Origin: an uncultured Candidatus Saccharibacteria bacterium
GTDB lineage: Bacteria; Patescibacteriota; UBA1384; XYA2-FULL-43-10; 1-14-0-10-43-13
DNA length: 64,000 nucleotides
Direction of reading: 5' to 3'
Assembly: GCA_964628585.1 (NCBI GenBank)
Contig: CAZVMH010000001.1
Coordinates: 64,450 to 128,449, forward strand
Below the pieces are notes generated by a model. It saw only the letters and a program-made list of their open reading frames with translations. It had not been told where the DNA came from and did no database searches. Shown here piece by piece: positions 2,614 through 57,993 of this stretch. The stretch's first letter is position 1, and each line of letters starts with the position of its first letter. The translations under genes and the position numbers were made by a program.

Positions 2614-2619
2614 CGCCAA

Positions 2620-8453: not shown

Positions 8454-8478
8454 TATAATTTAAATTGTAACATAAAAG

Positions 8479-8504: not shown

Positions 8505-8532
8505 CGGTGTGTTTTCCTCCCTTTGATTCTGG

Positions 8533-10514: not shown

Positions 10515-10533
10515 CTGGTTGCCTCCTTGTGGT

Positions 10534-11478: not shown

Positions 11479-11490
11479 GTTTCTCCCTTC

Positions 11491-12135
11491 CTATCGACTT
11501 TCATTTATTGCATCAAGGACATCGGGGGATAGTTGTCTTAGCGCCACGCTCTCGTGTTCAAAATCGGTCTTGACCGTGAAACTGGCCGTAACAATTGCGC
11601 TTAGCGGATCGGACGATATGTTGCGATGCAGCGCAACGATAGCTTGAGCAAATTGTGGAATTATTATCGCTTGAGTCCCAACTAATCGGGCTTGCTCGAA
11701 TGCAAATAATTCCGCAGATGTGTGGAGACATTCGGATACAGGTATCGTTGTCTGGCCGCTCACAGTCTTCTTCTCGGGAAGGCATTTCACAAATTCACGA
11801 AAAGTAATGCGTTCCAGCATTGCGATTACTCCCCGCAGATATTCAGAAGATGTCATTGCAGCGCTCATTAGATGCACTGACGAATATAGTCCCGATATAG
11901 CAGAAAAAAACTCGCGGTTGAGCTCTTCTTGCTCTATGGCCGACCGTCCGAAGACTGCCATCGGCAGATAGTCATCCACAAAGATGCTGGGCTTTCTATA
12001 AGTGCAGATCTCAGACAATACTGAGTGCATTAGAAAACCAGGACCTGGTGGTCGGTTCGCCCACAGGACGATCCCGAAGGGGTGTTCAACACTGATCGGA
12101 CCCATGAATCCCTTGATATAGTCCCCAATTTTCAC
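11491..12135 (-). CDS. Hypothetical protein
   Basis: 214-aa ORF with GC-rich coding statistics and the same orientation as its neighbours. No recognisable motif. Confidence 0.4.
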   Translation of the reverse strand: MKIGDYIKGFMGPISVEHPFGIVLWANRPPGPGFLMHSVLSEICTYRKPSIFVDDYLPMAVFGRSAIEQEELNREFFSAISGLYSSVHLMSAAMTSSEYLRGVIAMLERITFREFVKCLPEKKTVSGQTTIPVSECLHTSAELFAFEQARLVGTQAIIIPQFAQAIVALHRNISSDPLSAIVTASFTVKTDFEHESVALRQLSPDVLDAINESR

Positions 12136-14700: not shown

Positions 14701-16269
14701 TTATCTTCCCGTTTTTGGTGGTCCAGCTGGAATGACTGAAACAGAAGCGTTGCCAGCTGCTGAAACCGAAGCATTACCAAATGCGGTGACGGTTTGGTTG
14801 TTATAGTAACCAGTTACGGTAGCATTGCTAGTCATACTCGAAGTTACCTGACGCTGACATGTATATCGCCAAGTCTCGGAATTTTGGAGTTTTGAATCAC
14901 TATTTGTGTCGCCACTTTTATAAGTAACAGGAGAACACTGAGTATCGGTAACATTAACTTGCTCAAGTTCGGTATTACTAGGGTTTACTATAGTATAGGT
15001 AAACACAACCAAGCCACCTCCAATTGGAACGCCAGTTGGACTGGCCGTAACTGTTATGCCTATTTGAGGAGTCGTAGCTTTATTAATAAAAACACAGTAT
15101 GCATTACTAGATAGAGTTATTGGGATATTACTAATTGTATTTGTAATAAGATTAAAATTCCCTACGCTGGAACCATTTTGCTGACACTCCGCCGATTCCA
15201 ATGTATATCCAGTTTTTGGTGTTTCTGTAATTGAATAACTTCCTACGTCTAACTCAGTATATTGGAAAAGGCCTGTTGTGGTTGTCGTCTGACCGGTAAT
15301 AGATGAAGGTCCAGACAGATCAAAACCATATCCTGTCAAAAGTGCGTTCTCAATGCCACCATCGATATCTGCGTCACCATCACCGTCGGTGTCAATCTGA
15401 GCTTGAACCACGATTGCATCGTTGCACATTGAACTATAGAGTGTTGTAAGATTTGTGCCCAAGTTGTCGAAGTCGGAAGAAATTATGTCTGTACTTAAGG
15501 TAATGGGATCAGGGTCTGGCGAAACACTGTTTCCGATAACTTGTTTGAAGTTATCTATGTTGGCGTCAGCGCTAATAGCAAGCCCTAAAATCTTAATATT
15601 TTCTGCTTGTATTTCATCGGCCATTTCGGCGGCGTGTTGAACAGCCGTTGTCCCACCTGGATCACTTACGATAGCTACCGAAATAAGATCATCGACTTGT
15701 GTAATCTCGTCATAATAATTTGGTTGTCCGTCGGATGCAAAGATAATCAAATCTCTTTTTGCCGAGCGGTTGTTTACTGAATCGAAAGTATCTTTTGCAT
15801 TATACAATGCGTCATCCCAGTTCGTTCCGTCTTCTTCCGGCACTGTTGCGGCATCAATACTATTTTTAATCAATTCTGGCGTAGTACTTGGTGAAAATTC
15901 TAATACAGTAGAGGCAAAATTTCCGAAAGTGACTAAGGCAAATTGGGTCGGGGTAGAAGCAAATGAATCAACAAGATTCTTCAGAGCTGTTTTCATAATT
16001 ACTCTTTCGCCGTCAGTCATACTTCCCGTCATATCCATTACAAGAGTAATATCCATTCCGCATGTATTTACCGAATTTACGGTTGGGGCACCAGCGCCAG
16101 TAGGAGCCGGCGAAGATCCACCCTCAGGAACAAAATAGGGTGCATCAGCCGATATTCTAAAATCAATTGTTTTATTACTTCTAAGCCAAACAAACCCACC
16201 CAGGACTAGTACAAAAACAAGAGTTAGGGGTGCAACTATTTTTAATCTTCGATTAAAGTTCATAGACAA
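14701..16269 (-). CDS. Surface protein with an N-terminal signal-anchor, a von Willebrand factor A domain (MIDAS DMTGSM) and Ser/Thr-rich beta-repeat (Cna-B/DUF11-like) domains, ending in PAGPPKTGR; probable sortase substrate or adhesin
   Basis: 522-aa ORF with DITLVMDMTGSMTDGE (DxSxS-type MIDAS) and repetitive T/S/N-rich segments. It lies adjacent to and convergent with the sortase gene. Confidence 0.6.
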   Translation of the reverse strand: MSMNFNRRLKIVAPLTLVFVLVLGGFVWLRSNKTIDFRISADAPYFVPEGGSSPAPTGAGAPTVNSVNTCGMDITLVMDMTGSMTDGERVIMKTALKNLVDSFASTPTQFALVTFGNFASTVLEFSPSTTPELIKNSIDAATVPEEDGTNWDDALYNAKDTFDSVNNRSAKRDLIIFASDGQPNYYDEITQVDDLISVAIVSDPGGTTAVQHAAEMADEIQAENIKILGLAISADANIDNFKQVIGNSVSPDPDPITLSTDIISSDFDNLGTNLTTLYSSMCNDAIVVQAQIDTDGDGDADIDGGIENALLTGYGFDLSGPSSITGQTTTTTGLFQYTELDVGSYSITETPKTGYTLESAECQQNGSSVGNFNLITNTISNIPITLSSNAYCVFINKATTPQIGITVTASPTGVPIGGGLVVFTYTIVNPSNTELEQVNVTDTQCSPVTYKSGDTNSDSKLQNSETWRYTCQRQVTSSMTSNATVTGYYNNQTVTAFGNASVSAAGNASVSVIPAGPPKTGR

Positions 16270-19023: not shown

Positions 19024-22000
19024 ATGTTTAAAAAAGTTGATCCAAAATTGAATCTTCCTGAAGAAGAGGAGAAAGTTCTTAGGTTCTGGGATGAAAACGG
19101 AATTTTTGAGAAGTCTCTCGAAAAAGATAGCCCAAAAGGCAACTTTGTTTTTTATGAGGGCCCTCCGACTGCAAATGGTCATCCTGGTATTCACCATGTG
19201 GAGGCTCGTTCTTTTAAAGATCTTTTTTGTCGTTACAAAACAATGCAGGGCTATTATGTAAAACGAAAAGCTGGTTGGGACACACATGGTTTGCCGGTTG
19301 AATTGCAGGTAGAAAAAGAACTTGGTATTTCTGGCAAGGGTCAGATTGAAACACTTGTTCCTGGCGACAAGAAAGCTTCGATTGAAAAATTTAACAAACT
19401 CTGCAGGGAATCGGTTTGGAAGTTTAAGGGCGAGTGGGAGGAAATGACAGAGCGCATGGCCTATTGGGTAGATATGAATCACCCTTACATTACATATGAT
19501 GCAAACTATATTGAGAGCATTTGGAATATAATGTCTGAGATTGATAAAAAAGGACTTCTATATCGTGGTCACAAGGTCGTGCCATATTGTAATCGTTGCG
19601 GAACTACTCTTTCATCGCATGAAGTAGCACAGGGGTACAAAAATATCGAAGAAGAATCTGTACATATAGTATTAAAGTCAAAAAAAGATCCTGCAATTAA
19701 ATTCTTGGTTTGGACTACGACTCCATGGACGCTGGCAGGCAATGCAGCGATAGCAGTAAATCCTAAGATCGTTTATAGCTTATTGCAGATAGCAGATAGC
19801 AATTCAAAAATTGTTATGGCAAAGAACAGAATAGGTGGTGTTTTAAAAAATATCGATTACAAGGTTATCGAAGAGTTTTCAGGTGAAGAGTTTGTCAGAA
19901 AATACTCTACCGGTGGACAAGATTATGAGCCAATCTACCCAGATGGTGAAAAGTTTGTCGAAGGTGGAGAAAAGTCATACAAAATCATACTTGCCAATTA
20001 TGTTTCTGATTCAGATGGAAGTGGCATAGTTCATATTGCTCCAGCTTTTGGGCAAGATGACTATGTTTGGGGTTATCAAAAAAATCAAATCAAAGTTTTA
20101 AAAACTGTCGACGAAAAGGGGACAGAGCTTGCTGGAGCGGGCAAAGGTAGTTTTGTTAAGAAAGCCGATACCGAAATAAAAGCAGACTTAGAGAAACGAG
20201 AAATTTTATTTAAAACTGAAAAAGTTAAGCACGACTATCCGTTTTGCTGGCGTTGCGACTCCCCTCTTTTATATTTTGCTCGTGACTCTTGGTATATTGC
20301 CTCAAGCAAAATTAAAAACGAACTAGTTGCGAACAACGAACACATTAACTGGAATCCCGCCTACTTGAAGCATGGCCGTTTTGGTAATTGGCTCCAGAAT
20401 ATTGAAGACTGGGCCATCTCACGCGACCGATACTGGGGGACTCCACTTCCTGTCTGGAACTGCCAAAAATGTACCAAGAAAAAAGTGGTGGGTGATTTTA
20501 TGGATTTTAACAAAAGCAAAAATGAAACTATTACAAAACTTATTTTTGTTCGACACGGCGAATCAGAAACTAATGTAGGACATTTCAATTCAATATTACA
20601 CGACAAATGGGGGTTAACTACGCTTGGTAGAACACAAGCCGAGGCTGTTGCCGAAGACCTAAAAGATATTCAGGTTGACGCACTCCTTGTCTCGCCAGTT
20701 TTACGCGCTAAGGAAACAGCCAAGATTATTGAAAATAAGATTGGAATAAAATCTGAAGAAGATGCCCTTATTTCCGAATATGATTTTGGAGAATGGTGTG
20801 AAATAAGTAGAGAAGAACGCCTAAAACTTGAAGAATATAAAAGATACAAAGCAGTAACAACGCTCGAAGAAAAGTATCAATTCAAGCTAGGTGGTGCTGA
20901 GTCAAGAAAAGACGTTGTAACACGTGTAAAAACCTTTCTAGATAAGATTATGAAAAAGTACGAAGGCAAAACTATTGTGGTGGTCAGCCATGGCGGAATT
21001 TTAGCTGCTATTATGAAAAATATTGCCGATATATCCTTAGAAGAATATGATCATGTTGAAGACCATGTTTTACAGGGTCAACCGCATATTCGATATATTA
21101 ACTCAAGGGGCAAGCTTTTTGATCCGCATAAACCATATATTGACGAAATTACTTTTGATTGCGAATGCGGTGGAGAAATGGTTCGAACGCCCGAAGTGCT
21201 AGATGTTTGGCTTGATTCCGGCACTATGCCTTTTTCTCAATACCATTTTCCATTTATTAATAATACTCTTCTCAGAGAGCAATTTCCGGCCGACTTTATA
21301 TCTGAAGCGGTTGACCAAACCAGAGGTTGGTTCTGGACCCTTCTTGCCATTTCAACAATTCTTAAAGGCGAGTCGCCATACAAGAACGTTATCTCCTTGG
21401 GTCATGTTTTGGATGAAAAAGGCAAGAAGATGTCAAAGTCTTTGGGCAATATCATTTTCCCAATGCAAGCATTCGATAAATATGGTGCCGACATTATTAG
21501 ATATTATTTCTTCTGTGTTAATGGACCAGGTGAACCAAAACTCTTTTCTGACAAAGAAGTTACTTCATTATCGAGAAATTTATTCTTAACACTTTGGAAC
21601 GTTTTTTCATTCTTTATTACTTATGCTTCAATTGATAATTTCGAACCAAAGGAAAATATTGAACGCAAAAATATTTTGGATCGATGGGTATTGGCTAAAT
21701 TTAATAAACTGGTTGAAGAAGTAAATGAAGGATTAGACCACTACGATACTTTCAAACCAAGTAACTTAATAATTGAATTTGTCGGTGAACTTTCAACTTG
21801 GTATGTAAGACGATCAAGAAGAAGATTCTGGAAGAGTGAGAACGATAGTGATAAAATTGAAGCTTTTCAAACTTTGTATGAAATTATCATACAACTAGCA
21901 AAGTTGCTGGCACCGTTCACTCCGATGTTTGCTGAAACCATTTATTCTTATTTGCGAACCGAGAAAGATCCAATTTCAATTCACCTAACCGATTATCCAA

Positions 22001-22515
22001 AACCGGTAAAAATGGATGATTTAGTAATTAAAGAAATGGATACGGCCAGAAAGATTGTAGAGGCTGGTCTGTCAAAAAGAGCAAGTGCAGGGATTAAAGT
22101 TCGTCAACCTTTAAGCAAATTAACTTACAATGGTAGTAAATTAGATTCCGAATTAGAAACAATCATTGCCGAAGAAGTAAATGTGAAGTCTGTAGAAAAC
22201 GACTCAAAAATCACAGAGGTAATAATCGACACAGAAATTTCTCCAGAACTGAAAATGGAAGGGACTGCCAGAGAGATAATCCGAAACATCCAATCGCTAC
22301 GAAAGAAGACAGGTTTTGAAGTTGAAGACAGGATCGGTATGGTCTATCAAACAGAATCAAAATTTCTAGCAGATACTCTGGAAAAATTTGAAGAAGTAAT
22401 TAGCAAAGAAATTTTAGCCAAATCGATCAAATCTGGTAAATTAAAATCCGAAGGGACAGAAGAATTCACCATCGATGGCGAGAAAATTCAGATTGGAATT
22501 AACAAAAATAATTGA
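19024..22515 (+). CDS. ileS: Isoleucyl-tRNA synthetase, type 2 (Thermus/eukaryote-like), with a ~190-aa histidine-phosphatase (PGAM-like) domain inserted between the two halves of the zinc knuckle
   Basis: IleRS type-2 motifs PPTANGHPGIHH and KKMSKSLGN, an editing-domain motif GSGIVHIAPAFGQDDY, and a Zn knuckle C480QKC...C713EC. Between the knuckle halves sits a complete histidine-phosphatase domain (IFVRHGESETN, VSPVLRAKET, VVVSHGGI). Total length is 1163 aa. Confidence 0.85.
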   Translation: MFKKVDPKLNLPEEEEKVLRFWDENGIFEKSLEKDSPKGNFVFYEGPPTANGHPGIHHVEARSFKDLFCRYKTMQGYYVKRKAGWDTHGLPVELQVEKELGISGKGQIETLVPGDKKASIEKFNKLCRESVWKFKGEWEEMTERMAYWVDMNHPYITYDANYIESIWNIMSEIDKKGLLYRGHKVVPYCNRCGTTLSSHEVAQGYKNIEEESVHIVLKSKKDPAIKFLVWTTTPWTLAGNAAIAVNPKIVYSLLQIADSNSKIVMAKNRIGGVLKNIDYKVIEEFSGEEFVRKYSTGGQDYEPIYPDGEKFVEGGEKSYKIILANYVSDSDGSGIVHIAPAFGQDDYVWGYQKNQIKVLKTVDEKGTELAGAGKGSFVKKADTEIKADLEKREILFKTEKVKHDYPFCWRCDSPLLYFARDSWYIASSKIKNELVANNEHINWNPAYLKHGRFGNWLQNIEDWAISRDRYWGTPLPVWNCQKCTKKKVVGDFMDFNKSKNETITKLIFVRHGESETNVGHFNSILHDKWGLTTLGRTQAEAVAEDLKDIQVDALLVSPVLRAKETAKIIENKIGIKSEEDALISEYDFGEWCEISREERLKLEEYKRYKAVTTLEEKYQFKLGGAESRKDVVTRVKTFLDKIMKKYEGKTIVVVSHGGILAAIMKNIADISLEEYDHVEDHVLQGQPHIRYINSRGKLFDPHKPYIDEITFDCECGGEMVRTPEVLDVWLDSGTMPFSQYHFPFINNTLLREQFPADFISEAVDQTRGWFWTLLAISTILKGESPYKNVISLGHVLDEKGKKMSKSLGNIIFPMQAFDKYGADIIRYYFFCVNGPGEPKLFSDKEVTSLSRNLFLTLWNVFSFFITYASIDNFEPKENIERKNILDRWVLAKFNKLVEEVNEGLDHYDTFKPSNLIIEFVGELSTWYVRRSRRRFWKSENDSDKIEAFQTLYEIIIQLAKLLAPFTPMFAETIYSYLRTEKDPISIHLTDYPKPVKMDDLVIKEMDTARKIVEAGLSKRASAGIKVRQPLSKLTYNGSKLDSELETIIAEEVNVKSVENDSKITEVIIDTEISPELKMEGTAREIIRNIQSLRKKTGFEVEDRIGMVYQTESKFLADTLEKFEEVISKEILAKSIKSGKLKSEGTEEFTIDGEKIQIGINKNN

Positions 22516-45771: not shown

Positions 45772-47664
45772 TTGTATTATTTTAGCATGCCTAGAAACCC
45801 AAAACGAAAACTTAGCAAGAAAGAACAAAAAGCAATCGACAAGAATGTTCTTTTGCCAATAAAACAAACAGCAAAAGAAGAGAAAATAGAAAAGAAAAAA
45901 ACTGTTTTATTGCCAGAAGTCGTCTCTGTCAAAGATTTTGCTGACAAAACCAATTTGCCAGTTACGAAAATTATTACCGAACTAATGAAAAACGGCGTAT
46001 TGGCCAACATTAATCAAACCATCGATTTCGATACAGCTGCTATTATTGGAGATGAATTAAATCTTAATATTGAAAAAGAGCAAATTGGCGAAGAAAAATC
46101 AGAAATAGAAGTAAAAGAATCTCTTTCTAAAGAAGCAAATCTTAAAACAAGACCACCAATAGTAACAATTTTAGGGCATGTAGATCACGGCAAAACGTCT
46201 CTTTTGGATTACATTCGTAAAGCTCATGTTGCTTCAGGCGAATCTGGTGGGATAACTCAACATATTTCAGCTTATCAAATTACACTAGAAAAATTAAAAG
46301 CGACAAAAATTAAACATAGAACCATTACTTTTATTGATACGCCTGGCCACGCCGCTTTTTCTGCTATGAGAGAACATGGAGCTGCGATCACAGATATTGC
46401 CGTTATTATTGTTGCGGCAAATGACGGTGTCAAACCACAGACAATCGAGGTTATTAAATCGGCACAGGGAAGTAACGTTCCAATAATAATTGCTATTAAT
46501 AAAGTAGATTTGCCAGAAGCCGATGTAATGAAAACAAAACAACAATTGGCAGAATATGAACTTGTTCCAGAAGAGTGGGGCGGAAAAACAGTTATGGTGG
46601 AAGTTTCAGCCAAGACAGGCAAAGGAGTGGACGATTTATTGGAAATGATATTACTTCAGGCCGATATGATGGATTTGAAGGCAGATGAAAGCTCAAAAGC
46701 GGTTGGAGTTGTAATTGAATCACAAATGCAAAAAGGCAAAGGTGCTGTTGCAATGGTATTGGTAGAAAACGGAACATTAAATCAAGGTGATGCAGTTGCA
46801 ATTGGTGCAAGTTTTGGTCGAGCAAGAATTCTGGAAAACTTTAAGGGAGAAAATATTAAATCGGCTCTACCAAGCACTCCAGTCCGAATTGCTGGGCTTA
46901 AATCTTCTCCTGAGTTTGGTGACAAACTAGTTGTTTTTGATTCGGAAAAGGAAGCCAAAGAAGCTGCATCAAAAAATTTGACCACATTACCTTCAGTCCA
47001 AATGGCAACAGCAAAAAGAATGTCAGAAGACGGAGAAGATAATTCTGAAATTCTAGAATATAGAGTCATTTTAAAAGCAGATGTTAAGGGTTCGCTTGAA
47101 GCGATTAAAAAATCTTTATCAGAGATTAGAAGCACCGATATCAATTTAAAGATTATTTCTGAAGGGATTGGAGCTATTTCAGAATCAGATATTACTCTAG
47201 CTAAAGCTTCTAGAACAACCGTTATTGGATTTCGAGTAAAGGTGCTTGGGGCGGCTAGAAAAATTGCCGAAACTGAAAATATTAAACTTAAAACTTTTGA
47301 TATTATTTATGAGCTAATAGATCATATTCGTTTTGAAATGGCTGAGATGTTGCCACCAGAAATTATTGAAGAGGAATTGGCAAGCGGTACGGTCCTTGCT
47401 ATTTTCCGTGATGATAGAAAAGGTTTTGTTGCTGGCGGTAAAGTTGAATCAGGTGTCATTTCTCTTAATGACAAAATTAAATTTTATCAAAATGAGAATG
47501 AAAAATATCGTGCTACGGTACTTTCGTTGAGGAAGGAAAAGGGCGAAGCTAAAGAAGTAAATTCTGGCTCCGAATGTGGTTTCGGTTTGCCTCCTTTCTC
47601 CAAAGTCTCTGTTGGCGACAAATGGGTTGCCTTTAAGACAATTGAGAAAAAAAGATCGCTATAA
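45772..47664 (+). CDS. infB: Translation initiation factor IF-2
   Basis: A G-domain (GHVDHGKTSLLD, DTPGH, NKVD) followed by the IF-2 beta-barrel domains. Confidence 0.85.
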   Translation: MYYFSMPRNPKRKLSKKEQKAIDKNVLLPIKQTAKEEKIEKKKTVLLPEVVSVKDFADKTNLPVTKIITELMKNGVLANINQTIDFDTAAIIGDELNLNIEKEQIGEEKSEIEVKESLSKEANLKTRPPIVTILGHVDHGKTSLLDYIRKAHVASGESGGITQHISAYQITLEKLKATKIKHRTITFIDTPGHAAFSAMREHGAAITDIAVIIVAANDGVKPQTIEVIKSAQGSNVPIIIAINKVDLPEADVMKTKQQLAEYELVPEEWGGKTVMVEVSAKTGKGVDDLLEMILLQADMMDLKADESSKAVGVVIESQMQKGKGAVAMVLVENGTLNQGDAVAIGASFGRARILENFKGENIKSALPSTPVRIAGLKSSPEFGDKLVVFDSEKEAKEAASKNLTTLPSVQMATAKRMSEDGEDNSEILEYRVILKADVKGSLEAIKKSLSEIRSTDINLKIISEGIGAISESDITLAKASRTTVIGFRVKVLGAARKIAETENIKLKTFDIIYELIDHIRFEMAEMLPPEIIEEELASGTVLAIFRDDRKGFVAGGKVESGVISLNDKIKFYQNENEKYRATVLSLRKEKGEAKEVNSGSECGFGLPPFSKVSVGDKWVAFKTIEKKRSL

Positions 47665-47788
47665 AATTATCAGTTTTCTTTAATAGAATGTCATATTAAT
47701 CGCATAAACAATTAGATTAATACAGATGTCAATGATTGACTCATAAATTAGTAATAGTGTATTCTTTAATAAACTGATAGATTTATGA

Positions 47789-50700
47789 TTGTGGGGAGGG
47801 ATTTTGCTTAGACGCCTACAACTTTGGCTTTCTACTTTACCAAAAAAGAAACTAGTTGGTCTTTTTAGTGTCTTCGTCTTTGTTCTAGTATTGGGAGCAT
47901 ACTTCATATATCAAAAATTCTCTGCCGATGAATTTATTGATACCCGTATGAACATATCTGGACGGGTTTTTGATGCCGATGCAAAAACGTCTCTTGCTGG
48001 AGTCAAAGTCTCATTCATATCAAGAAATTACGACGGTCTTGGCACAACTCCAGCACCCCTTGAGTATACTTCTGACGCACTGGGTGCTTTTAATGTTACT
48101 CTACCAGATGAAGTAACCTATGATCTGGTTCTTTTTGAAAAAGAAGGCTACTTTGATATTGAGGGTACATATGCCTTAGAATCGGCCACTTCGGAGCCAA
48201 AAGAAGTAACACTTGCTATTACCATGAAACCAGGTTTTGGCAGGGAAAATGTACATCTGCAGACCATTATGCCAAAATGGAATCTAATATCTTCTCCTCT
48301 TGTTCCAGAAGACAGCAATCCAGCAAGCTTTTTTACCTATTACAGCGTAGCTGAAGATAACCTAAATATTAAAAAAAGCCAGCTTAATCTCACCGATAGC
48401 AACAAAGATACCGAGCTTTATCGTTGGGAAAACGCCAATCAGGGATTAAAAGTATATGATCAATGGTCTTCTGATGATTTTGGTCCAATAGAAGCCGGTG
48501 CCGGATATTGGCTCGAATACAAGGGCGAAACACCCAAAACTATTGTTATGCGAGGTAAACAGGAGAACTCTCTTCCAAACGGCACCTTTAATATTGCTAA
48601 AGCAGGTTGGGCGCTGATTGGTCTGCCTACCATAAATCAAATGCGAATGTCCGAGATCGGAATTGAAAAAGATGGCCAGCTAATGACCATTAATGAAGCT
48701 TTTGGAAAAGGAGAAGTAGAAGAGATATATTATTGGGATAATGGTAACCAAGGACTTTTAAACTACAACGATTGGTCAGGCGAAGAAGCTCTAGCTGAAG
48801 TCGGTTCTGGCTACTGGATAAAGACCAAAAATGATAATACAAAAATCTTTACAGGTCAGACTTTTATTGGTCATATGCAAACACCTAACGGCATCCCACT
48901 CCCGGGTGTCAATATCGGCTTTATGGCAGATAGCACCAACACCTACAACCCTAGCCAGCTTGCCACAACTGACGCAAATGGCAACTTTTCAATGACCAAT
49001 CTTAATCCTGCCTACAAATGGATTACGATACAAAAAAATGGTTATGTAAAAATTGAAGCTACAGTTACTACCAAAGAATCCGCGACGCAATATCTTGGTG
49101 GTCTAAACTTTCTTCTAGAGCCAGGTGAGGGAACGAAATATGTTCAAATTGTCCCGCTTAAAAAGGATCAAAAAACTAATTTCGGACTCTCAATCATACC
49201 TAGTAGCAGTACCACTCTTAATACAATTGTAAAAGAGGGCGATAATTATGTACAAAAACCACTCCAAGACCAAATCTCTGCCTTCGAGCTTTCAAAAGAA
49301 GAATTCATCCCAATGGAAGCAGATAAATTTACTAACTCTGATGGTGATCAACTAACACAGGAATTAACTGGTTCAACCTCAGGATCTATAGATAGTAATA
49401 CTTATATATTTGGTGGTATCGACAAAGCAACCAATAAGCCGACTGACATGATCTCATACTATGACCCGGTTTCCCAATCAATTAATACACTAAATACGAA
49501 GTTGCCAAAACCACTAACCGGAGCAGGAAGCTTTACTCTGCCGGGGGAAAATACAATTATCATCTTTGGCGGAGCTACTACTGACAGTCAAAAATCTGAT
49601 TCCATTTATGCTTTATCAACCGACAATGACACAATCAACCGAATCGGCTCTACTCCTGCACACGAACGGTACCAAGTTGTTAATGTAGATGGTAATTTAG
49701 TTCTAATTGGTGAGGATTCCAATGCCGTTACTGTACATCTTCTAAATCTAAAGTCTCTGACTCAACAGATTAAATCAGGCAACTGTCTTGTTAAAGATGC
49801 CACCTGTAGCCTCAACCTGGTCTCGAGCCCCTGGGCCCCAACAACAAAAATCGGTATCGGTTCAACTCCGTATTACAAAAATGGCAAACTATACTTTTTT
49901 GGTGGTGTAAAAAATGGTAATCCAGTTAATTCGATTTATGCTGTTCCAACCAACCCAATGCCAACAAATGATTCTTCTCTAAATCAATTGTCCCAAACCC
50001 TGCCTTACCCCGTAGCATATTCTTCATCCCTAGCCCTGTCTGACTCAAGTAAACTCTATCTAATGGGTGGAAAATCAGAGAATGGCGATCTAACCGATAA
50101 GATAACAGCTATTTCGTTTGCAGATCCCAGCAATATTGGTGTTTCTCAGATTGACCACAAATTGTCCAGACCGTCGGGCGATGTTGCTTTCAGCGCAGAT
50201 GCTTGGGATAATCTTCATGTCTTTTCCTCTTCAGCCTATACTGAACCAGATATTACCATAAATGAAAACGGAGATATTAATGAAGGTGAAGTTCCAGAGA
50301 TAAAATACAATCAAGTTATCTCTCCTAACTCTTCACTTAAACCGGGTCAGGTCTATTCTATTACCCCTTCTTCTTCATATGCTTTAGTAATCGTCTCATC
50401 TGTTGATTCGCCAGAAAGACCTCTTGATTTTGAGACTGCCAGTTTGCCAACCCAATCTTTTATGGTTTCTAAACCAAACAGTGAATACTTTATTACTTCT
50501 TCTTCATTAGGAGAAGAACCCTTAAAACATTACAAGTTTACTTTTGAAGGAGAAGAATACAATCTCAAGCAAGCTGCTGAACAAAATCTCATTAATTCAA
50601 AAATCAAGATTGATGATAGAGAAATTGATCTTGCCAGTCTACCAACACAAGACTTAAGCAAAACATATGTCTCACCGGGCAGTGTACTGTCTTTTACCGA

Positions 50701-52789
50701 CAAAGCAGACATGTATGTTACACGTGATTACGACGATTTAGAGCCTGCTTACTCAACAGGTTATATGCTAATTGACGAACTAGTCAAAGGTCTCAAAACA
50801 GAAGGTCTAAATGATGTCCAGGTTGACGATATACTCAATTTACTCAATAATTGTACCCCAAGCTTCTTTGATCGTCGTTCCGGTGATGCAGAGAGAGAGG
50901 AATGTCTAAATTCATTAGAAGAACCACGTAGTTTTAGGACTGAAGATGTTTTTGCACCGGTAAGTGCAGAGAAGCCAGAGAAAGGTTTAGCGAAGGCAAA
51001 CCCTTTGGTTAAGGGGGCTGAAGCAATCAGCGTAGGAAAGCTTTGGGACAAGGCAAAAGGGGCAGTGCTTACTACTACCCGAACTGTAAAAGCGGTTTTT
51101 GGTCCTGATTACAATGTTGAAAGAGATACAAAACGATTTGTCGAAAAATGGAATGAGCCACACAAAAAAGCCCGAACTGCATATCTGATTAAGGACCTTG
51201 GTCATGAGAAAAGACTTTCTATGTGGTACAGCTATTACATTGAAACACAGGAAAACCATTTAAAATTTTATTTTGACAAGCGATTTAAATACAAAAACGC
51301 AAGATACAACAATCCCTTTTATTACAAAAGGTTTTGGTTTACTGGAACAACTTTAAGCGGTCGTTATGACAATTTTGATAAGGATCCAGCCAATGCATGG
51401 TACACAAGCAAAAAATTAGACTATCTCTATGCCTTTTTCTGGCCAGATCTAAAGAAGAATCGTTATCAAGCAGAGTTTACTCCAGAAGAAAGGAGTCGTT
51501 TAGAGATGATAGTTAAAACAATGAAGAAGGAAAAGCTTAACCTTGTGCCGGTCTATGACAATGACGCAATTCGTGACGAAACTGGAGAGCTTGCAATTAA
51601 CTGGATAATTATGCCGATGGCCTTGAACTTTACTTCTAAGACTGTTATTGGTAGTTTGATCGGGGCTGTCGAATCTAGGCTGACTACACAAACGACTAGA
51701 GGGTTAATAAAAGAGCTTGCCACACTTACTAAAATAGAAAAAACCATGCCTAAAGTAGTACAGGCCACAAAAGTAGACCTCGATCTGGCACTTCGTTCTG
51801 AGGCAAAGAGGAGTGTTTCGGCAGGAGTTGGAAAATCCTTATTCGAACGTTTCATTTCAGACGAATTTAGACCCCATACGCCAACAATGTCAAGACTGGG
51901 AGGTTTGGGTGATGACTTTTTTTGGAAACCAATGAAGATAGGGGAACCCGGAGTGCCTACGGAATATACTGCACTTGAATCTTATTATCAAACATTATTA
52001 ATAAACAAAAGGGCTGTTGAATGGGGAGAGAAAATGGTGGTTGAAGAGGCTCCCATCTATAAAGCCATAATTTCGACAATGGAAGGCAAAGGGCATGAAA
52101 ACGATGTTGTTCAATATTCTACTTACGAATTAGCTCATCTTTTAAGAAATACCGGGAAGTTTCATCCGTCACCTGGTAGTGAGAACGTATTGGCAACCTA
52201 CAATAGCTGTGGAGACAATTTATTTCCGCAAATACGTGTGACTGACCAGTATCTGGATGATTATTTGTTTGAACAAGTTATGACACATGAGGATGCACAC
52301 TGGCTTCAGGGAGGTTATAGTCTTAGCGATAGAATTATAGATGCTGGTGGTGCCTGTAGTTTTGCTGCAATTGATGAATCTCTCGCAGAGATTGTCAGTC
52401 AATTAAATTTTCAAAAAATGCATCCTGACATACCAGTGCCCAGTTATAGTTATCCGGAATCAGTTAATATTATGAAGGCGCTAATAAGAGCATATGAAAG
52501 GAAATTAAGGAGGGAGGCCCTCCCGGGTCAGGTGATTACTTATGAAGAGGCAGCTTGGAAATTATTTATTGAAAATAATCTAAAAGGAAATTACTATTTT
52601 GATACTATATTTCTTAGGGAAGCAATTAGAACCAGTGCAGGGGCAATGAAGTCTAACTCTTTGTATTCAGAAGCTATACAAAAAACATGTTTAGCCGACT
52701 TCGTGGCTACAACCCCGGAAGAAATCAGCAGGTCAAATCAAATGGTACAAGCAAGATTGGCCGAAATTGAATTATTTTTTCCTGAGTAA
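47789..52789 (+). CDS. Giant (1666 aa) membrane-anchored extracellular protein with an N-terminal signal-anchor, carboxypeptidase-regulatory-like and Kelch/beta-propeller-like repeats, and a ~650-aa C-terminal domain carrying an HExxH motif (MTHEDAHW)
   Basis: TTG start followed by a TM helix (LVGLFSVFVFVLVLGAYFIY). It has repetitive beta-rich segments (GRVFDADAKTSLAGVKV...; GNFSMTNL...) and Kelch-like segments (IFGGID..., IIFGGAT...). The C-terminal region is novel. Confidence 0.6.
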   Translation: MWGGILLRRLQLWLSTLPKKKLVGLFSVFVFVLVLGAYFIYQKFSADEFIDTRMNISGRVFDADAKTSLAGVKVSFISRNYDGLGTTPAPLEYTSDALGAFNVTLPDEVTYDLVLFEKEGYFDIEGTYALESATSEPKEVTLAITMKPGFGRENVHLQTIMPKWNLISSPLVPEDSNPASFFTYYSVAEDNLNIKKSQLNLTDSNKDTELYRWENANQGLKVYDQWSSDDFGPIEAGAGYWLEYKGETPKTIVMRGKQENSLPNGTFNIAKAGWALIGLPTINQMRMSEIGIEKDGQLMTINEAFGKGEVEEIYYWDNGNQGLLNYNDWSGEEALAEVGSGYWIKTKNDNTKIFTGQTFIGHMQTPNGIPLPGVNIGFMADSTNTYNPSQLATTDANGNFSMTNLNPAYKWITIQKNGYVKIEATVTTKESATQYLGGLNFLLEPGEGTKYVQIVPLKKDQKTNFGLSIIPSSSTTLNTIVKEGDNYVQKPLQDQISAFELSKEEFIPMEADKFTNSDGDQLTQELTGSTSGSIDSNTYIFGGIDKATNKPTDMISYYDPVSQSINTLNTKLPKPLTGAGSFTLPGENTIIIFGGATTDSQKSDSIYALSTDNDTINRIGSTPAHERYQVVNVDGNLVLIGEDSNAVTVHLLNLKSLTQQIKSGNCLVKDATCSLNLVSSPWAPTTKIGIGSTPYYKNGKLYFFGGVKNGNPVNSIYAVPTNPMPTNDSSLNQLSQTLPYPVAYSSSLALSDSSKLYLMGGKSENGDLTDKITAISFADPSNIGVSQIDHKLSRPSGDVAFSADAWDNLHVFSSSAYTEPDITINENGDINEGEVPEIKYNQVISPNSSLKPGQVYSITPSSSYALVIVSSVDSPERPLDFETASLPTQSFMVSKPNSEYFITSSSLGEEPLKHYKFTFEGEEYNLKQAAEQNLINSKIKIDDREIDLASLPTQDLSKTYVSPGSVLSFTDKADMYVTRDYDDLEPAYSTGYMLIDELVKGLKTEGLNDVQVDDILNLLNNCTPSFFDRRSGDAEREECLNSLEEPRSFRTEDVFAPVSAEKPEKGLAKANPLVKGAEAISVGKLWDKAKGAVLTTTRTVKAVFGPDYNVERDTKRFVEKWNEPHKKARTAYLIKDLGHEKRLSMWYSYYIETQENHLKFYFDKRFKYKNARYNNPFYYKRFWFTGTTLSGRYDNFDKDPANAWYTSKKLDYLYAFFWPDLKKNRYQAEFTPEERSRLEMIVKTMKKEKLNLVPVYDNDAIRDETGELAINWIIMPMALNFTSKTVIGSLIGAVESRLTTQTTRGLIKELATLTKIEKTMPKVVQATKVDLDLALRSEAKRSVSAGVGKSLFERFISDEFRPHTPTMSRLGGLGDDFFWKPMKIGEPGVPTEYTALESYYQTLLINKRAVEWGEKMVVEEAPIYKAIISTMEGKGHENDVVQYSTYELAHLLRNTGKFHPSPGSENVLATYNSCGDNLFPQIRVTDQYLDDYLFEQVMTHEDAHWLQGGYSLSDRIIDAGGACSFAAIDESLAEIVSQLNFQKMHPDIPVPSYSYPESVNIMKALIRAYERKLRREALPGQVITYEEAAWKLFIENNLKGNYYFDTIFLREAIRTSAGAMKSNSLYSEAIQKTCLADFVATTPEEISRSNQMVQARLAEIELFFPE

Positions 52790-52799
52790 AGGATTGCTT

Positions 52800-53663
52800 A
52801 TGATGAATGATGAATTCTCCATGAACCCGATTGAACAGGCTTTTTCAACTGAAAATAGTCAGGAAATTATGGATTTGTGGAAGCAGAGCACCGAACTTCA
52901 AGAGGAGATTATTCCTAATCTTGTTATTATAAATAACATTACAAACAGACAACGTCTCATTGGGTTTTTTAAAGATAGGTTTCCCCAAACATCCGATAAA
53001 GAAAAAAACAATATCTTGGTTGCCTTATCAAAAATTTGTTACAGAGATCCTGAACTTCAATCTGATATAATAAAATATATTGGGAGTATGCCAAAAGAGC
53101 ATCCAGAACTAAATCAAACAGTTATTAACTGCTTAAAAGACATTAGTTCAAGTCTGGTTTATGGTTACGAAACCGAACTTAATAGAGATGGAGAATTTCC
53201 AACCAAAATATCTGAAAATTTGAATCAAATATTTTCTTATCTAATACAATTTGCTGATGGTGATTACGGCGATCAAATAAAAATGAATGCGCTACAGGAT
53301 ATTTTTCGTTATAAATTTGTTCATCAGGAGGATCATTTGGTGTCGGTACTTAAAAAACTTATAGAAACTGGTAGTCCGGAGCTTAGCACCTATGCTTTTT
53401 CGGAATTAGCGGGAATTGTTGATTCAAGTGACGGTTATTATAAAAAAGCACTTAAAAATGAAATTGAAAAATTGGATCCAAAAAATTGTCCAAAAGATGA
53501 CCTATTAAGATTAATTATTATTCTTAATCATACTGGTGACTCTAGCCATATACCATTTCTTGAAGATTTAAAAAATAAGTATTTTCTTGGAGACAATGAA
53601 TGTACTTATTATATTGATCACGCTATAAAAGCTATAAAATTAAGGGGGGCAAATGAAACATAA
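52800..53663 (+). CDS. Hypothetical all-alpha (HEAT/ARM-like) cytoplasmic protein immediately downstream of the giant protein
   Basis: No TM segment and helical-repeat composition. The start at 52800 has an AAGGA SD; the longer ORF from 52767 overlaps the giant gene. Confidence 0.45.
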   Translation: MMNDEFSMNPIEQAFSTENSQEIMDLWKQSTELQEEIIPNLVIINNITNRQRLIGFFKDRFPQTSDKEKNNILVALSKICYRDPELQSDIIKYIGSMPKEHPELNQTVINCLKDISSSLVYGYETELNRDGEFPTKISENLNQIFSYLIQFADGDYGDQIKMNALQDIFRYKFVHQEDHLVSVLKKLIETGSPELSTYAFSELAGIVDSSDGYYKKALKNEIEKLDPKNCPKDDLLRLIIILNHTGDSSHIPFLEDLKNKYFLGDNECTYYIDHAIKAIKLRGANET

Positions 53664-55962
53664 ATTTTTTTCAATTATGATCGGGTTTTTTTTGATAGCC
53701 AATATGTTTAATTTTGATTTTGCTTATGCTGTAGAACAACAACCCGTACCAACTCCTGAAATTACAGTTGACCAGTTGGGAGTAACAGATAAAACTGTCG
53801 GAACAATTGTACGCTGGACAATACCAGATGATGCTCCTCCTGAATTTTATGGCTTTATCTTAGAAAAGAAAATTCCCAATGGCGATAGGATTGAGATAGT
53901 AAACTATTACCCCGATGATTTAAATGATTTTGGTTATTATATGGACGATTATGTTGATCTGGGGAAGACTTACACCTATTACATTCGGGCGTATGTTCGT
54001 TCGTCAAATAATCCCGATGAGAGATACCATCGTTCTGACTGGGCAGAAAAAACAATTACTTTAGAGCCGATCAAATTTGCGAATGTGGTAGTTACGACTA
54101 CGAATACTGAAGCAAAAATTACTTGGGCATCGGACTACGAACTTGACTGTAAAATCGAATATGGTCTTTCAACGGAATATGGTACGTCAAAAGAGGAAAA
54201 TCAGGTTGACGATAGCAACCATATTGATCATACGGCCGCTCTTAGCAACTTAACCCCTGATACAACGTATCATTATAAAATTGTCGGGAATGAGATCGAC
54301 GACGAATCATCCATTATTGAATCTGCAGATTTTTCTTTTAAAACGAAAGGCGGTTCGGTAGATATTCTTAATCATACGGGCAGTTGGGTTGGTAATTATA
54401 AAGCAGAGGTTTCCTTTGCTTCAAATAAAACTGTCACAGCAGAAGTTATGATTGAAAAAGACGGTGACATTGAATCCAGACAAACTCATAACTTTTCCGC
54501 TGGAACAACTTTTTCTCATCAATTTGATGTATACGACCAGACTGAATATAATTATTATGTTTCAATTTCTGAAGAGGGGGAAGACCCTTCAATTGATGGC
54601 GCACAGGGAAAATTTACTACCCCACCTGTAGTTATTTCTGATGCGAGAATCATTCAAGACGGACAAAATTATAATGTTTTGTGGAACACGGATATCCCAG
54701 CAAGGAGTAAAATTGTCTATAAATGTTCTTTTGAAGAACTAAAGATGGGAGAGAAAATTGACGATAACTTTTCTTTGAATCATTCCATAACAATAAACAA
54801 AAGTGATCTCGAAATATTTGAAACCGGAGGAATATATTATGTTACTGTTTACGCTTATGGTAACAGCAATAATGAAAAAGTTGCTTACGCTGGTGAAATC
54901 TATTTTATTCCATTGGAAATATCACTTGCTAGCGCTACGCCCATTCTAGTTAATACGGCAACACTTGAATATGATGTTGTTTTTACATGGAGAACATCTC
55001 TTTCTGCTACTGGCACAGTTTTATTTTCAGGAACTACTCCAGGAACAGTATCATGTCTAAACTCGGATACGGTCTGTTCAGCGACTGCAAGAAATCTTAA
55101 AAGAGGAGCATATCAGTTCACAATTACTGCTACGAGTGAAAATAATGAGACAGAAACCTATGAGGCTGAGTTTCAGATTGGTGACGACCAAAAATATGTA
55201 ATAGTAACTTTTATCAGCGATGACGGAAATAACACGAATTTTTATTGGCATACTTATCCTGAAAATTTAATAATAGATAGCGCGACATTAAGAGGACGAG
55301 CAGAAACGGAAGCTACCAATCCTAGTACGGGCAATCTTCAGCAATATACTGCTTGTCCGATAAGTACAGTTTTCTCCGGTGATGGGCATGGAACCTTGTC
55401 TGTGGGCAGTCTCTGTGCTGGTCAGTACAGATTTTGGGGTGAAGCCAAAACAGATGCAACCACCATTCCAATCAGTTTTGCAGGGGAGGAAGCAACTTGC
55501 TATAGTTCTGGCGGTTACGGAGGAAGTTGCCCTAATCAGTTTGGTAAAACTTTTAGTTTTGGAGTTGCAGAAAAATCTTATAGCTCACCGGTTTTTAGTG
55601 GGTATGAACATAAATTTTCAAGATCACTAGCCTTTCCTTGGCAGTGGTCTGAATCATGGGAAAGTATGATTTCAGTATTTAGATATAGTAGCATTAATAA
55701 TTATAGTTATGCCATACTTAGGCCCGCAATAAGTATTTTTTCAGCAACTGTTCCCGTTGGATCGCCTCCAACAGATACGGTTATATTTGATCAGCTGTAT
55801 AATCAAATTCAATATGATGACACAATACCTTCATATAGTAGAATGCTTCATTCCGGCGAAACGGTATATGGACCACCTTATCCAAATTGTCCCGGCTCAG
55901 TTCAGTCCGTATATTCTTGGCCGTCCGGGTCGCAAAATCTATGTTCTTTTACTTGGCCGTAA
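53653..55962 (+). CDS. Secreted protein with a signal peptide and multiple fibronectin type III-like / Ig-like beta-sandwich domains
   Basis: 769-aa ORF with the N-terminal signal MKHKFFSIMIGFFLIANMF and repeated FN3-like segments (KTYTYYIRA, TTYHYKIV, GIYYVTVYA). Confidence 0.5.
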   Translation: MKHKFFSIMIGFFLIANMFNFDFAYAVEQQPVPTPEITVDQLGVTDKTVGTIVRWTIPDDAPPEFYGFILEKKIPNGDRIEIVNYYPDDLNDFGYYMDDYVDLGKTYTYYIRAYVRSSNNPDERYHRSDWAEKTITLEPIKFANVVVTTTNTEAKITWASDYELDCKIEYGLSTEYGTSKEENQVDDSNHIDHTAALSNLTPDTTYHYKIVGNEIDDESSIIESADFSFKTKGGSVDILNHTGSWVGNYKAEVSFASNKTVTAEVMIEKDGDIESRQTHNFSAGTTFSHQFDVYDQTEYNYYVSISEEGEDPSIDGAQGKFTTPPVVISDARIIQDGQNYNVLWNTDIPARSKIVYKCSFEELKMGEKIDDNFSLNHSITINKSDLEIFETGGIYYVTVYAYGNSNNEKVAYAGEIYFIPLEISLASATPILVNTATLEYDVVFTWRTSLSATGTVLFSGTTPGTVSCLNSDTVCSATARNLKRGAYQFTITATSENNETETYEAEFQIGDDQKYVIVTFISDDGNNTNFYWHTYPENLIIDSATLRGRAETEATNPSTGNLQQYTACPISTVFSGDGHGTLSVGSLCAGQYRFWGEAKTDATTIPISFAGEEATCYSSGGYGGSCPNQFGKTFSFGVAEKSYSSPVFSGYEHKFSRSLAFPWQWSESWESMISVFRYSSINNYSYAILRPAISIFSATVPVGSPPTDTVIFDQLYNQIQYDDTIPSYSRMLHSGETVYGPPYPNCPGSVQSVYSWPSGSQNLCSFTWP

Positions 55963-55977
55963 TAAGAGGAAAGTATA

Positions 55978-56661
55978 ATGAAAAAATCAATTAAAACTTT
56001 CGGAATTATTTTTATTGCAATTGTATTATTGGGAACCATATTGTTTTTCTTAAACAGATTAAACGAGTCACGTCTTCAGAAAGCAAGCAAAGCCGTTTGG
56101 GAGCAATTTTTAACCAAAACAGGGCAAGAAAAACATTCGTTTGGTTGCAATGTTAATGTTATTGCAAAAGAAAAAGGTAAGGAAAAATATACACAAAATA
56201 TTAATACCGGTTATCAAGAAGACTCAAAGCTAAAAGGCACATATCAATTCAAAAACGATAAACTAACAATTGAAAAACAATTTATTACCTTGGGGGACAT
56301 TACTTATTCAGAAGAGGGAAAAGATAAAAAATGGTTTATTTGGGCTACCAAATCATATCCAGAGTCCAAATACTACACGCCCAAACAAATAGTCGAGGCA
56401 CTAGACATGTCAAGTATTCGATTTGATAATAGAAAAAAGGGCTTGTTTTTTTATCATGGGTATTTAAAAACTCCAATTGAAAATGATGATTTAGGTATTG
56501 CCTCAATAAAAATTGTAGTTGACGGAAAAGATAAATTTATTAAACAGATCGAGCTGGTTGGCAGACAAAATAACATTATAATAACTAAAAAAGTTACATT
56601 TTCAGATTATGACAAAGTGTTTGATATTAACAAACCGGACGATAAAGATATTGTTAAATAA
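55978..56661 (+). CDS. Hypothetical membrane-anchored or lipoprotein-like protein
   Basis: 227-aa ORF with an N-terminal TM (FGIIFIAIVLLGTILFFL). Confidence 0.4.
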   Translation: MKKSIKTFGIIFIAIVLLGTILFFLNRLNESRLQKASKAVWEQFLTKTGQEKHSFGCNVNVIAKEKGKEKYTQNINTGYQEDSKLKGTYQFKNDKLTIEKQFITLGDITYSEEGKDKKWFIWATKSYPESKYYTPKQIVEALDMSSIRFDNRKKGLFFYHGYLKTPIENDDLGIASIKIVVDGKDKFIKQIELVGRQNNIIITKKVTFSDYDKVFDINKPDDKDIVK

Positions 56662-56683
56662 TTTTAATAGTCGTGTATAAAAA

Positions 56684-56857
56684 ATGAGCAAAAGGACAAT
56701 TGTAAAACACAAAAAGTCTTACTATGCCGAAAGAGATGCCAAGGGTCGGTTTGTTAGCTTTTCAAACATTGGCAAATCTATTGCCGAAGATTCTCGGACT
56801 AAGGCTAAGAAAAAGGTCAAACCTGGTCATGGTCATGAAGGAGATTTGAAGAAATAA
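56684..56857 (+). CDS. Possible small basic protein (57 aa)
   Basis: MSKRTIVKHKKSYYAERDAKGRFVSF...KKKVKPGHGHEGDLKK. Lys-rich, with no clear SD; below the ORF-track cutoff. Confidence 0.25.
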   Translation: MSKRTIVKHKKSYYAERDAKGRFVSFSNIGKSIAEDSRTKAKKKVKPGHGHEGDLKK

Positions 56858-56885
56858 AATAATGATTTATGAAGACAAAATCATT

Positions 56886-56914
56886 TTGCAAATTTTAGCG
56901 TTGTAGAGTAATAT
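56886..56914 (+). promoter_or_regulatory. Sigma70-like promoter (TTGCAA, 17-nt spacer, TAATAT)
   Basis: -35 at 56886-56891 and -10 at 56909-56914, upstream of the small membrane ORF and cdaA. Confidence 0.4.
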
Positions 56915-57116: not shown

Positions 57117-57180
57117 CATGACTCATACGAATAGCGAATTTTACTAATAACGAATAACGAATAAATAAGTAGGGGATAAA

Positions 57181-57993
57181 TTGGACGCTCTAAGTGGAAA
57201 AGTTCAAGGGATAGCCGAACGCTCTAGTTATTTTTTTAGTGATATAAAAATAAATTTCAATCTTCTCTCAGTTGTTGACGTTTTAATTGTTGCTTTTTTG
57301 TTGTATTGTGTCTATATCTTCCTAAAAGAAACAAGGGCGATGCGAATTTTATATGGCCTTTTGCTCATTGTAATATTAATGGCACTAGGAAAATTACTTG
57401 ATCTGGTGCTACTTAATTGGATACTTCGTAGCTTTGCCACAGCATTAATTGTCGCTATTCCAATTGTGTTTCAACCGGAGCTTCGAACGGCATTAGAGAA
57501 ACTTGGCAGAACAAAATTTCTTGGAGAACTCGCTTTTTCAAAAGAAGAATATGATAGTTCTCTTGGAAAGATTATCAATGCAGTCTTACTCTTATCGCAG
57601 AGAAAAACAGGAGCTCTCATAGTCTTACGCCGTCAGAACGGATTAAGAGATTATATTGAGAATGGTATTAAGATAAATGCCACAATTTCTACAGAAATGT
57701 TACTATCTATATTCTATCCCAAATCACCGCTTCATGACGGTGCAGCAATTATTGAAAATAATAAAATAGTTTCGGCCTCTTCAACTCTACCAGTTTCACA
57801 GCAAACACTAAGTCAAAACTTAGGCACAAGGCACAAGGCCGGGCTTGGGATAACTGAGGATTCTGATGCGATTTCAATTATTGTTTCTGAAGAAACAGGC
57901 GGTATTTCCGTTGCCGTTGGGGGTAAATTAGAAACAAAGATCTCTGAAGAGAGGTTAAAGAATAGATTAACAGCACTGTTACGTCAAAAGTAA
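57181..57993 (+). CDS. cdaA: Diadenylate cyclase (c-di-AMP synthase), membrane-anchored CdaA type
   Basis: Three N-terminal TM helices plus a DAC domain (LHDGAAII, GTRHKAGLGITE, SEETGGIS). Confidence 0.85.
   Translation: MDALSGKVQGIAERSSYFFSDIKINFNLLSVVDVLIVAFLLYCVYIFLKETRAMRILYGLLLIVILMALGKLLDLVLLNWILRSFATALIVAIPIVFQPELRTALEKLGRTKFLGELAFSKEEYDSSLGKIINAVLLLSQRKTGALIVLRRQNGLRDYIENGIKINATISTEMLLSIFYPKSPLHDGAAIIENNKIVSASSTLPVSQQTLSQNLGTRHKAGLGITEDSDAISIIVSEETGGISVAVGGKLETKISEERLKNRLTALLRQK

Follow-up and report, generated by a model that had tools for sequence, protein, structure and literature searches.

The window, a stretch of 64,000 nucleotides (nt) from contig CAZVMH010000001.1 of an uncultured Candidatus Saccharibacteria bacterium, contains a block of four genes encoding a predicted membrane-tethered giant protein and three smaller proteins. 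Four open reading frames (ORFs) lie on the + strand at 47789-52789 (1666 amino acids, aa), 52767-53663 (298 aa), 53653-55962 (769 aa), and 55978-56661 (227 aa); the ORF listing matches exactly the coordinates given in the original prediction, an earlier annotation of this DNA made from its letters alone. We refer to the giant gene and its product as G and to the following three genes, in order, as B, C, and D. The block is preceded by gyrB, gyrA, and infB and followed by cdaA and a gene for a YbbR-domain protein (Pfam and NCBIfam scans), and the remaining genes of the window encode aminoacyl-tRNA synthetases and similar housekeeping proteins. The closest relatives of the infB product, IF-2, are found in metagenome-assembled genomes of Patescibacteria (65-66% identity), with conserved upstream synteny. 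Based on these relatives and on gene content and synteny, the organism is most likely a bacterium of the candidate phyla radiation with the standard genetic code. The block and its genes are as follows.

47670..56683, + strand: four-gene accessory block of 9.0 kb, with infB on one side and, on the other, a conserved small gene and then cdaA
47789..52789, + strand: gene G, 1666 aa; start codon TTG at 47789, or TTG at 47804 right behind GGGAGGG
52800..53663, + strand: gene B, 287 aa; no signal peptide and no transmembrane segment; probably an alpha-helical repeat protein
53653..55962, + strand: gene C, 769 aa; predicted secreted repeat protein of the FN3 / purple-acid-phosphatase-N type; Pfam PF16656 (Pur_ac_phosph_N), E 4e-9
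55978..56661, + strand: gene D, 227 aa; predicted signal-anchored small ectoprotein, hydrophobic residues ~7-27

Each of the four genes has a Shine-Dalgarno sequence of its own, and the gaps or overlaps at the junctions measure 10 to 15 nt. At the junction of G and B the sequence reads TAA-AGGATTGCTT-ATG, with AGGA 7 nt before the ATG at 52800. Most likely, translation of B would begin at this ATG, 10 nt past the G stop codon, yielding 287 aa, rather than inside the stop region of G as had been proposed; this start was likewise chosen in an independent gene annotation of the same sequence by the Joint Genome Institute (JGI). C starts 11 nt before B ends, and D begins 15 nt after C.

Relatives of G were sought by a word-indexed homology search over 5.8 billion proteins and by an exhaustive phmmer search over 1.84 billion cluster representatives. 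In the former, the C-terminal 766 aa of G had no match, and the N-terminal 900 aa identified one partial relative, P0002. In the latter, G retrieved a fragment from the same organism and two real homologs, P0005 (1559 aa) and P0006 (1244 aa), with alignments of E ~1e-33 covering only G residues 901-1250. P0002, P0005, and P0006, from loci L070, L071, and L072, respectively, are singletons from Logan assemblies, and the G family is extremely rare. In a full-length alignment, the architecture of G recurs complete in P0005 (33% identity) and, minus a Kelch propeller, in P0006 (26% identity). Conservation is uneven along the family, with 41-48% identity at residues 801-1000 and the lowest values, 14-29%, at residues 1300-1666. 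The PheT proteins of the window and of L071 share 41% identity, comparable to the value for G and P0005 (33% overall, 40-48% in the core); therefore, the G family is not evolving extraordinarily fast overall.

The relationship to P0002 is limited to the N-terminal part. Residues 6-354 of P0002 align with residues 14-372 of G (BLASTP E 1e-50, 35% identity over the N-terminal 360 aa), and the membrane anchor is also common to both. Past this part, P0002 has a HEMIH...WEEGH motif of its own and FN3 repeats resembling C (E 2e-6). In effect, P0002 looks like G-like and C-like parts joined in one chain. The following regions were distinguished within G.

47828..48904, + strand: N-terminal ectodomain module, residues 14-372; CarboxypepD_reg-like beta-sandwich and two W-x-N-x-x-Q-G...G-x-G-Y-W repeats; common to P0002
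47852..47911, + strand: N-terminal signal-anchor, residues 22-41 (LVGLFSVFVFVLVLGAYFIY); RR...KKK before, conserved QK[FY]SAD after
48878..49084, + strand: second CarboxypepD_reg domain, residues 364-432; Pfam PF13620, E 3.7e-11, above the gathering score
49301..50323, + strand: Kelch-type beta-propeller insert, an optional module, residues ~505-845; Pfam Kelch families, E 1e-16, residues 528-650
50336..51538, + strand: best-conserved core, residues ~850-1250; invariant C1022 and C1039; phmmer E 1e-33
52196..52786, + strand: gluzincin-like C-terminal region, residues ~1470-1666; HEDAH at nt 52286-52300 and ESLAE (E1530...E1534) at nt 52376-52390

The length of G given in the original prediction was confirmed, and the N-terminal signal-anchor proposed there agrees with the hydropathy profile, which has one hydrophobic segment, residues 22-41. 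By the positive-inside rule, the simplest topology would be N-in/C-out, with a large ectodomain. The juxtamembrane motif QK[FY]SAD (window 47912-47935, G residues ~42-49) is kept in G, P0002, and P0005 despite diverged surroundings and could be a processing or docking site. The CarboxypepD_reg-like and Kelch-like repeats noted earlier are both recognized by Pfam. In addition to the second CarboxypepD_reg domain, a fragment scan gave a weak match to this family at residues ~56-125, and a PDB profile search with the N-terminal module (profile A5) found nothing significant. The Kelch propeller is present in P0005 and missing from P0006 as one clean gap.

The core is marked by two motifs, C-x-PSFFDR...R-x-x-CL-x-S, containing C1022 and C1039, and PF-x-x-K-x-x-W...DL-x-x-x-RY-x-x-x-FT. 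The two invariant cysteines suggest an extracytoplasmic disulfide. The core (profile A4) has no Pfam or PDB match, and for the last 766 aa of G, scans of Pfam, NCBIfam, PADLOC, PHROGs, and PDB sequences yielded no match, not even with short fragments and permissive cut-offs. The original prediction described a C-terminal domain of ~650 aa belonging to no known family. The lack of a family stands, and the unity of the domain does not: this stretch is a composite that includes the best-conserved part of the protein (~850-1250), a poorly conserved part (1300-1500), and a zincin-like site in the last ~200 aa.

The latter site provides the main clue to the function of G. The HExxH motif (MTHEDAHW) occurs in G once, at residues 1500-1504, versus 0.012 occurrences expected by composition. 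H1500, E1501, and H1504 are invariant across G, P0005, and P0006, where HEDAH, HELTH, and HEGTH fall in one alignment block, and in both homologs the motif sits ~165-175 aa before the C-terminus. E1530 is also invariant, with D/E at position +4, in the context E-x-x-[AC]-[DE] (ESLAE, EMQAD, EMECD), 26-33 residues after the second His. In shuffled sequences, the composite motif has a probability of 5e-4 for the C-terminal region of P0005 and 2e-3 for that of P0006. Local identity around the site is only ~16-29%, yet all four site residues are kept. Since the H, E, H, and E residues are invariant in the least-conserved part of G, the motif is, by this pattern of conservation, under selection and not incidental; the possibility that it is incidental, named earlier as a ground for refutation, was not borne out.

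In MEROPS clan MA, HExxH with a downstream helix carrying ExxxD (thermolysin, M4) or ExxAD (M48) constitutes the gluzincin zinc site; the corresponding signature of M78 is ExxAN. By analogy, we infer that E1530 is the third zinc ligand. The likeness of G to M4, M48, and M78 is one of motif only (HExxH plus E-x-x-[AC]-[DE]), with no match to a family profile.

A further HExxH protein is encoded beside P0002. The neighboring regions of L070 (1-6047 and 10935-11657) contain genes for a 455-aa protein with HELAH and without a signal peptide, for an RcpC/CpaB pilus-assembly protein, and for a 909-aa polytopic protein, whose precomputed TrbL_3 hit was not reproduced on rescan. Judging from these neighbors, a link of the G family to secretion or pilus loci is possible. 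We considered the 455-aa protein as the G C-terminus encoded by a separate gene and rejected this idea as unproven, since the two proteins align in nothing but the motif (BLASTP E 24; 9% probability in hhalign).

Among the partner genes, C is the most constant companion of G. Its N-terminus is signal-peptide-like (AYA|VEQ), and together with the FN3-type Pur_ac_phosph_N domain (E 4e-9) this agrees with its earlier description as a secreted FN3-repeat protein. The first ~240 aa of C match both a 531-aa protein of the P0006 locus (E 2e-32) and a 235-aa protein directly after P0005 (E 5e-36). In L072, the gene order is P0006, 268 aa, 531 aa, 240 aa, mirroring G-B-C-D. That such genes are neighbors in three loci, and that P0002 has both kinds of module in one chain, suggests joint action of G and C.

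B, in turn, has no signal peptide or hydrophobic segment, consistent with its prediction as a cytoplasmic protein. The HEAT-like label attached to it depends on two sub-threshold hits only, Adaptin_N for B (E 0.003, 16.7 bits versus a cut-off of 37) and HEAT_2 for its L072 homolog (E 0.008, 16.9 bits versus a cut-off of 27.7), and a PDB profile search with the B alignment (A3) found nothing. The homolog is the 268-aa protein directly downstream of P0006, 31% identical to B over the full length (E 2e-33). The word-indexed search with B returned only a fragment on L033 from the same organism. The latter is not an independent homolog: L033 is a JGI contig of the same strain, in which a scaffold gap filled with 10 N looks like an 11-bp indel. 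This gap (L033 positions 994-1003, window ~53075) splits the gene call, and the resulting 107-aa and 191-aa products are artefacts. Conservation of B independently of G, raised earlier as a possible objection to their pairing, was not observed; B was found only beside G homologs, a pattern drawn from two instances and a word-indexed search. A dedicated partnership, in which B would be a protector, chaperone, or regulator of G, is possible at low probability.

D had been described as a lipoprotein, and this assignment has to be withdrawn: its N-terminus, MKKSIKTFGIIFIAIVLLGTILFFLNRLNES, has no Cys and no lipobox, the first Cys lies near residue 57, and the protein has an uncleaved-looking hydrophobic anchor instead. 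Homology of D to the 240-aa transmembrane-anchored protein at the same position in L072 was also rejected, the similarity being not significant (z = 1.0).

The block is accessory and patchy in distribution, since it is absent from the syntenic site of a close relative and the cassettes of L071 and L072 lie in neighborhoods differing from that of the window. The close relative is represented by a 1.6-kb contig, L042, whose IF-2 C-terminus is ~87-90% identical at the amino acid level. Positions 1-658 of L042 correspond to window 47033-47669, 1074-1304 to 56684-56914 (the gene of a 57-aa basic protein), and 1509-1628 to 57171-57290, where cdaA begins; window 47670-56683 has no counterpart there but 415 bp of unrelated sequence. 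The block is not flanked by repeats, no tRNA gene or integrase was found around it, and its guanine-cytosine (GC) content, 0.374 versus 0.387 for the window, is not anomalous; a search for a mobile element at this site thus gave no sign of one. Nor is there support for an origin from a phage or plasmid: scans of viral contigs and tblastn against phages and plasmids were negative, and PADLOC and PHROGs gave no hits.

Several observations concern the surroundings of the block. Just after it, at 56684-56857 on the + strand, lies a gene for a very basic protein of 57 aa (MSKRTIVKHKKSYY...GHGHEGDLKK), which is kept in L042 (tblastx 85%), there 415 bp past infB. Two related Patescibacteria contigs, L003 and L034, share the upstream order of the window (sugar transferase, GT4, gyrB, gyrA, infB) and end within or ~200 bp past infB, so that they carry no information on the site of the block; these ends may be assembly breaks at a variable locus. 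In a more distant relative, L035, infB is followed by obg.

The reading that we favor, and to which we give an even chance, takes the block as a rare accessory operon whose products form a cell-surface apparatus centered on a membrane-tethered multidomain protein with a gluzincin-type zinc-metallopeptidase site. In the mechanism proposed, G would insert into the membrane by its N-terminal signal-anchor, as suggested by hydropathy and charge, and expose ~1620 aa outside the cell. The beta-sandwich modules and the optional Kelch propeller, recognized as domains, would serve as a stalk and for ligand binding, and the Cys-containing core would lead into a helical C-terminal region. There, H1500, H1504, and E1530, conserved as described above, may bind zinc, with E1501 as the putative general base. 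The secreted FN3 protein C would work physically with G, as adjacency in three loci and the P0002 fusion suggest; D would be a small membrane-anchored accessory protein, and B a cytoplasmic helical-repeat partner, a candidate chaperone, regulator, or protective binder. The likely role of the apparatus would be cleaving or gripping proteins of a host cell or of the surroundings, for attachment or for peptide scavenging.

Several results weigh against this reading. AlphaFold and Foldseek, both recommended in the original prediction, gave no usable structure: models of the 766-aa region reached a predicted local distance difference test (pLDDT) score of 34 with a single sequence and 39 with the three-sequence alignment, and Foldseek of the low-confidence model against PDB produced only noise, with no hit at E <= 0.001. 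That model (pLDDT 39) does place the HExxH and E1530 motifs in predicted helices. No curated peptidase family profile in Pfam, NCBIfam, or PDB sequence profiles matches G or its homologs, and a PDB profile search with the zincin region (profile A2) returned nothing significant. Asp right after the Glu, as in HEDAH, is unusual among zincins. The putative zincin assignment thus stands on a conserved motif in three sequences only. Among the partners, D has no detectable homolog, a cytoplasmic protein such as B has no evident place in a surface operon, and no B homolog is detectable within 21.5 kb around P0005, where the HExxH/E site is intact.

A surface role agrees with what is known about the group. 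Patescibacteria do not synthesize amino acids and are rich in proteases and surface proteins; in one Saccharibacterium, adhesins on the cell surface are essential (PMC11665869). A peptide-scavenging role would fit the lack of amino-acid biosynthesis. Host attachment and nutrient extraction in Patescibacteria are largely unexplained, and many of their large surface proteins have no annotation (PMC11665869). The locus is a concrete candidate for such a function, offering a cassette of G and FN3 protein (with a helical and an anchored protein in addition) and four putative active-site residues. With it comes an apparently new zincin-like domain family, along with two further conserved modules that match neither Pfam nor PDB. 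The known members number three or four, none of them from a cultured organism, and genomes of this kind often encode large surface proteins without annotation; the cassette is carried by one lineage, and the closest relative sampled does not have it at this site.

By architecture, and without a sequence relationship, two groups of known proteins seem closest to G. The streptococcal IgA1 protease, ZmpB, and ZmpC (MEROPS M26) are proteins of ~1600-2000 aa with an N-terminal tether, a long non-catalytic ectodomain, and a gluzincin site towards the C-terminus, and at the cell surface they act on host proteins. G resembles them, at the level of architecture only, in size, N-terminal tether, long ectodomain, and C-terminal HExxH with a downstream Glu. 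It differs in having CarboxypepD_reg and Kelch domains and no Peptidase_M26 Pfam match, LPXTG, or G5 module, and its conserved partners B, C, and D have no counterpart in M26 systems. The second group includes SslE/YghJ and the M60-like/enhancin mucinases, in which a giant surface protein combines a C-terminal gluzincin domain with carbohydrate- or protein-binding beta modules; SslE is a lipoprotein of a diderm secreted by the type II secretion system. G likewise would be a giant surface protein with a C-terminal gluzincin-like site and beta modules; however, it has no Peptidase_M60 match and carries a signal-anchor, unlike the lipoprotein SslE.

The motif may also be read in a different way, with the apparatus as a non-catalytic adhesin or surface-layer component that binds the host via its Kelch, FN3, and beta-sandwich domains and retains the HExxH/E site as a structural metal site or a relic. 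Most of the recognizable domains are indeed binding or structural modules, no peptidase family matches, and surface adhesins are important in Patescibacteria (PMC11665869). This explanation is unlikely, however, as the four putative active-site residues, the catalytic Glu included, are invariant in the least-conserved part of the protein, which points to selection on a zincin-type site. The recurrence of HExxH in P0002 and in the neighboring 455-aa protein of L070 also speaks against it.

The original prediction offered two explanations, a polymorphic toxin-immunity pair and a host-attachment or degradative surface apparatus. The latter fits the evidence better, because of the topology, the conserved pairing of G with an FN3 protein, the P0002 fusion, and the accessory, patchy distribution; the former is not supported. 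The locus resembles WapA/WapI, CdiA/CdiI, LXG, and Rhs systems in encoding a large exported protein with an enzymatic-looking C-terminus, followed by a gene for a small cytoplasmic protein. The differences are more telling. The C-terminus of G is homologous across the family and not swapped: the alignments of G with P0005 and P0006 run over the full length and include the same HExxH C-terminus. Variable C-termini on a conserved scaffold were thus not seen, with three relatives in all, and P0002, which differs past residue 372, represents another architecture and not a tip swap. In G, P0005, P0006, and P0002, Pfam and NCBIfam found no pre-toxin or trafficking module (RHS/YD, LXG, FHA/VENN, PT-TG, MafB, WXG100) and only CarboxypepD_reg, Kelch/mutarotase-like, and FN3 families. 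There are no orphan copies of a toxin tip or an immunity gene in the window, where tblastn of G, B, C, and D gives self matches only. Finally, a B-type gene directly follows a G-type gene in the window and in L072 and is missing from the 21.5 kb of L071, a comparison of few loci.

A looser version of this idea is a contact-dependent effector with an immunity or protector protein, in which G would deliver a zincin toxin to hosts or rivals and B would neutralize it, as in WapA/WapI or contact-dependent inhibition (CDI) systems, though without cassette swapping. In its favor, B directly follows G with a 10-nt gap, as does its homolog in L072, and is found only beside G homologs; B has no export signals, whereas the zincin would be extracellular; and the C-terminal third of G diverges fastest (14-29% identity versus 40-48% in the core). 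We nevertheless rate this version as quite improbable: all three full-length family members keep the same C-terminal domain, known pre-toxin or trafficking domains and orphan cassettes were not found, the intact HExxH/E site of L071 has no B homolog within 21.5 kb, and the candidate toxin region is not compact or demarcated as a terminal module.

A bolder combination of these ideas, to which we assign a slim probability, is that G and B form a contact-dependent weapon or feeding tool of an episymbiont, outside the described polymorphic-toxin families. A zincin of an unclassified family at the tip of the stalk would breach or digest the host surface, and cytoplasmic B would keep it inactive or unfolded before export. 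The least plausible alternative, a cell-envelope maintenance enzyme whose zincin processes the cell's own wall, surface-layer, or pilus proteins and not host molecules, could appeal to the neighboring genes (cdaA and ybbR in the window, a Peptidase_S11 penicillin-binding protein in L071, RcpC/CpaB and the TrbL-like protein in L070), but the absence of the block at the same site in the closest relative and the extreme rarity of the family, all of whose members are singletons, are atypical of housekeeping, making it very doubtful.

Elsewhere in the window, several further features stand out. An isoleucyl-tRNA synthetase-like ORF of 1163 aa (19024-22515, + strand) contains a His_Phos_1 domain at residues 506-678 (E 3e-35), an unusual insertion that splits the match to the class-I synthetase catalytic domain about where the editing domain sits. 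Two segments, 1-4000 and 8001-12000, have a GC content of 0.48-0.51 versus 0.31-0.40 in the rest of the window; they hold genes for PNP_UDP_1, radical SAM, an ABC-F-type ATPase, and tyrosyl-tRNA synthetase, and two minus-strand ORFs without a Pfam match (9723-10583 and 10534-11478). In a single ORF on the minus strand (4999-6546), an MFS transporter domain is followed at the C-terminus by a NUDIX hydrolase domain. Another predicted surface protein, encoded at 14701-16269 on the minus strand, has a von Willebrand A domain together with a pilin/adhesin-type domain of SpaA-like prealbumin fold.

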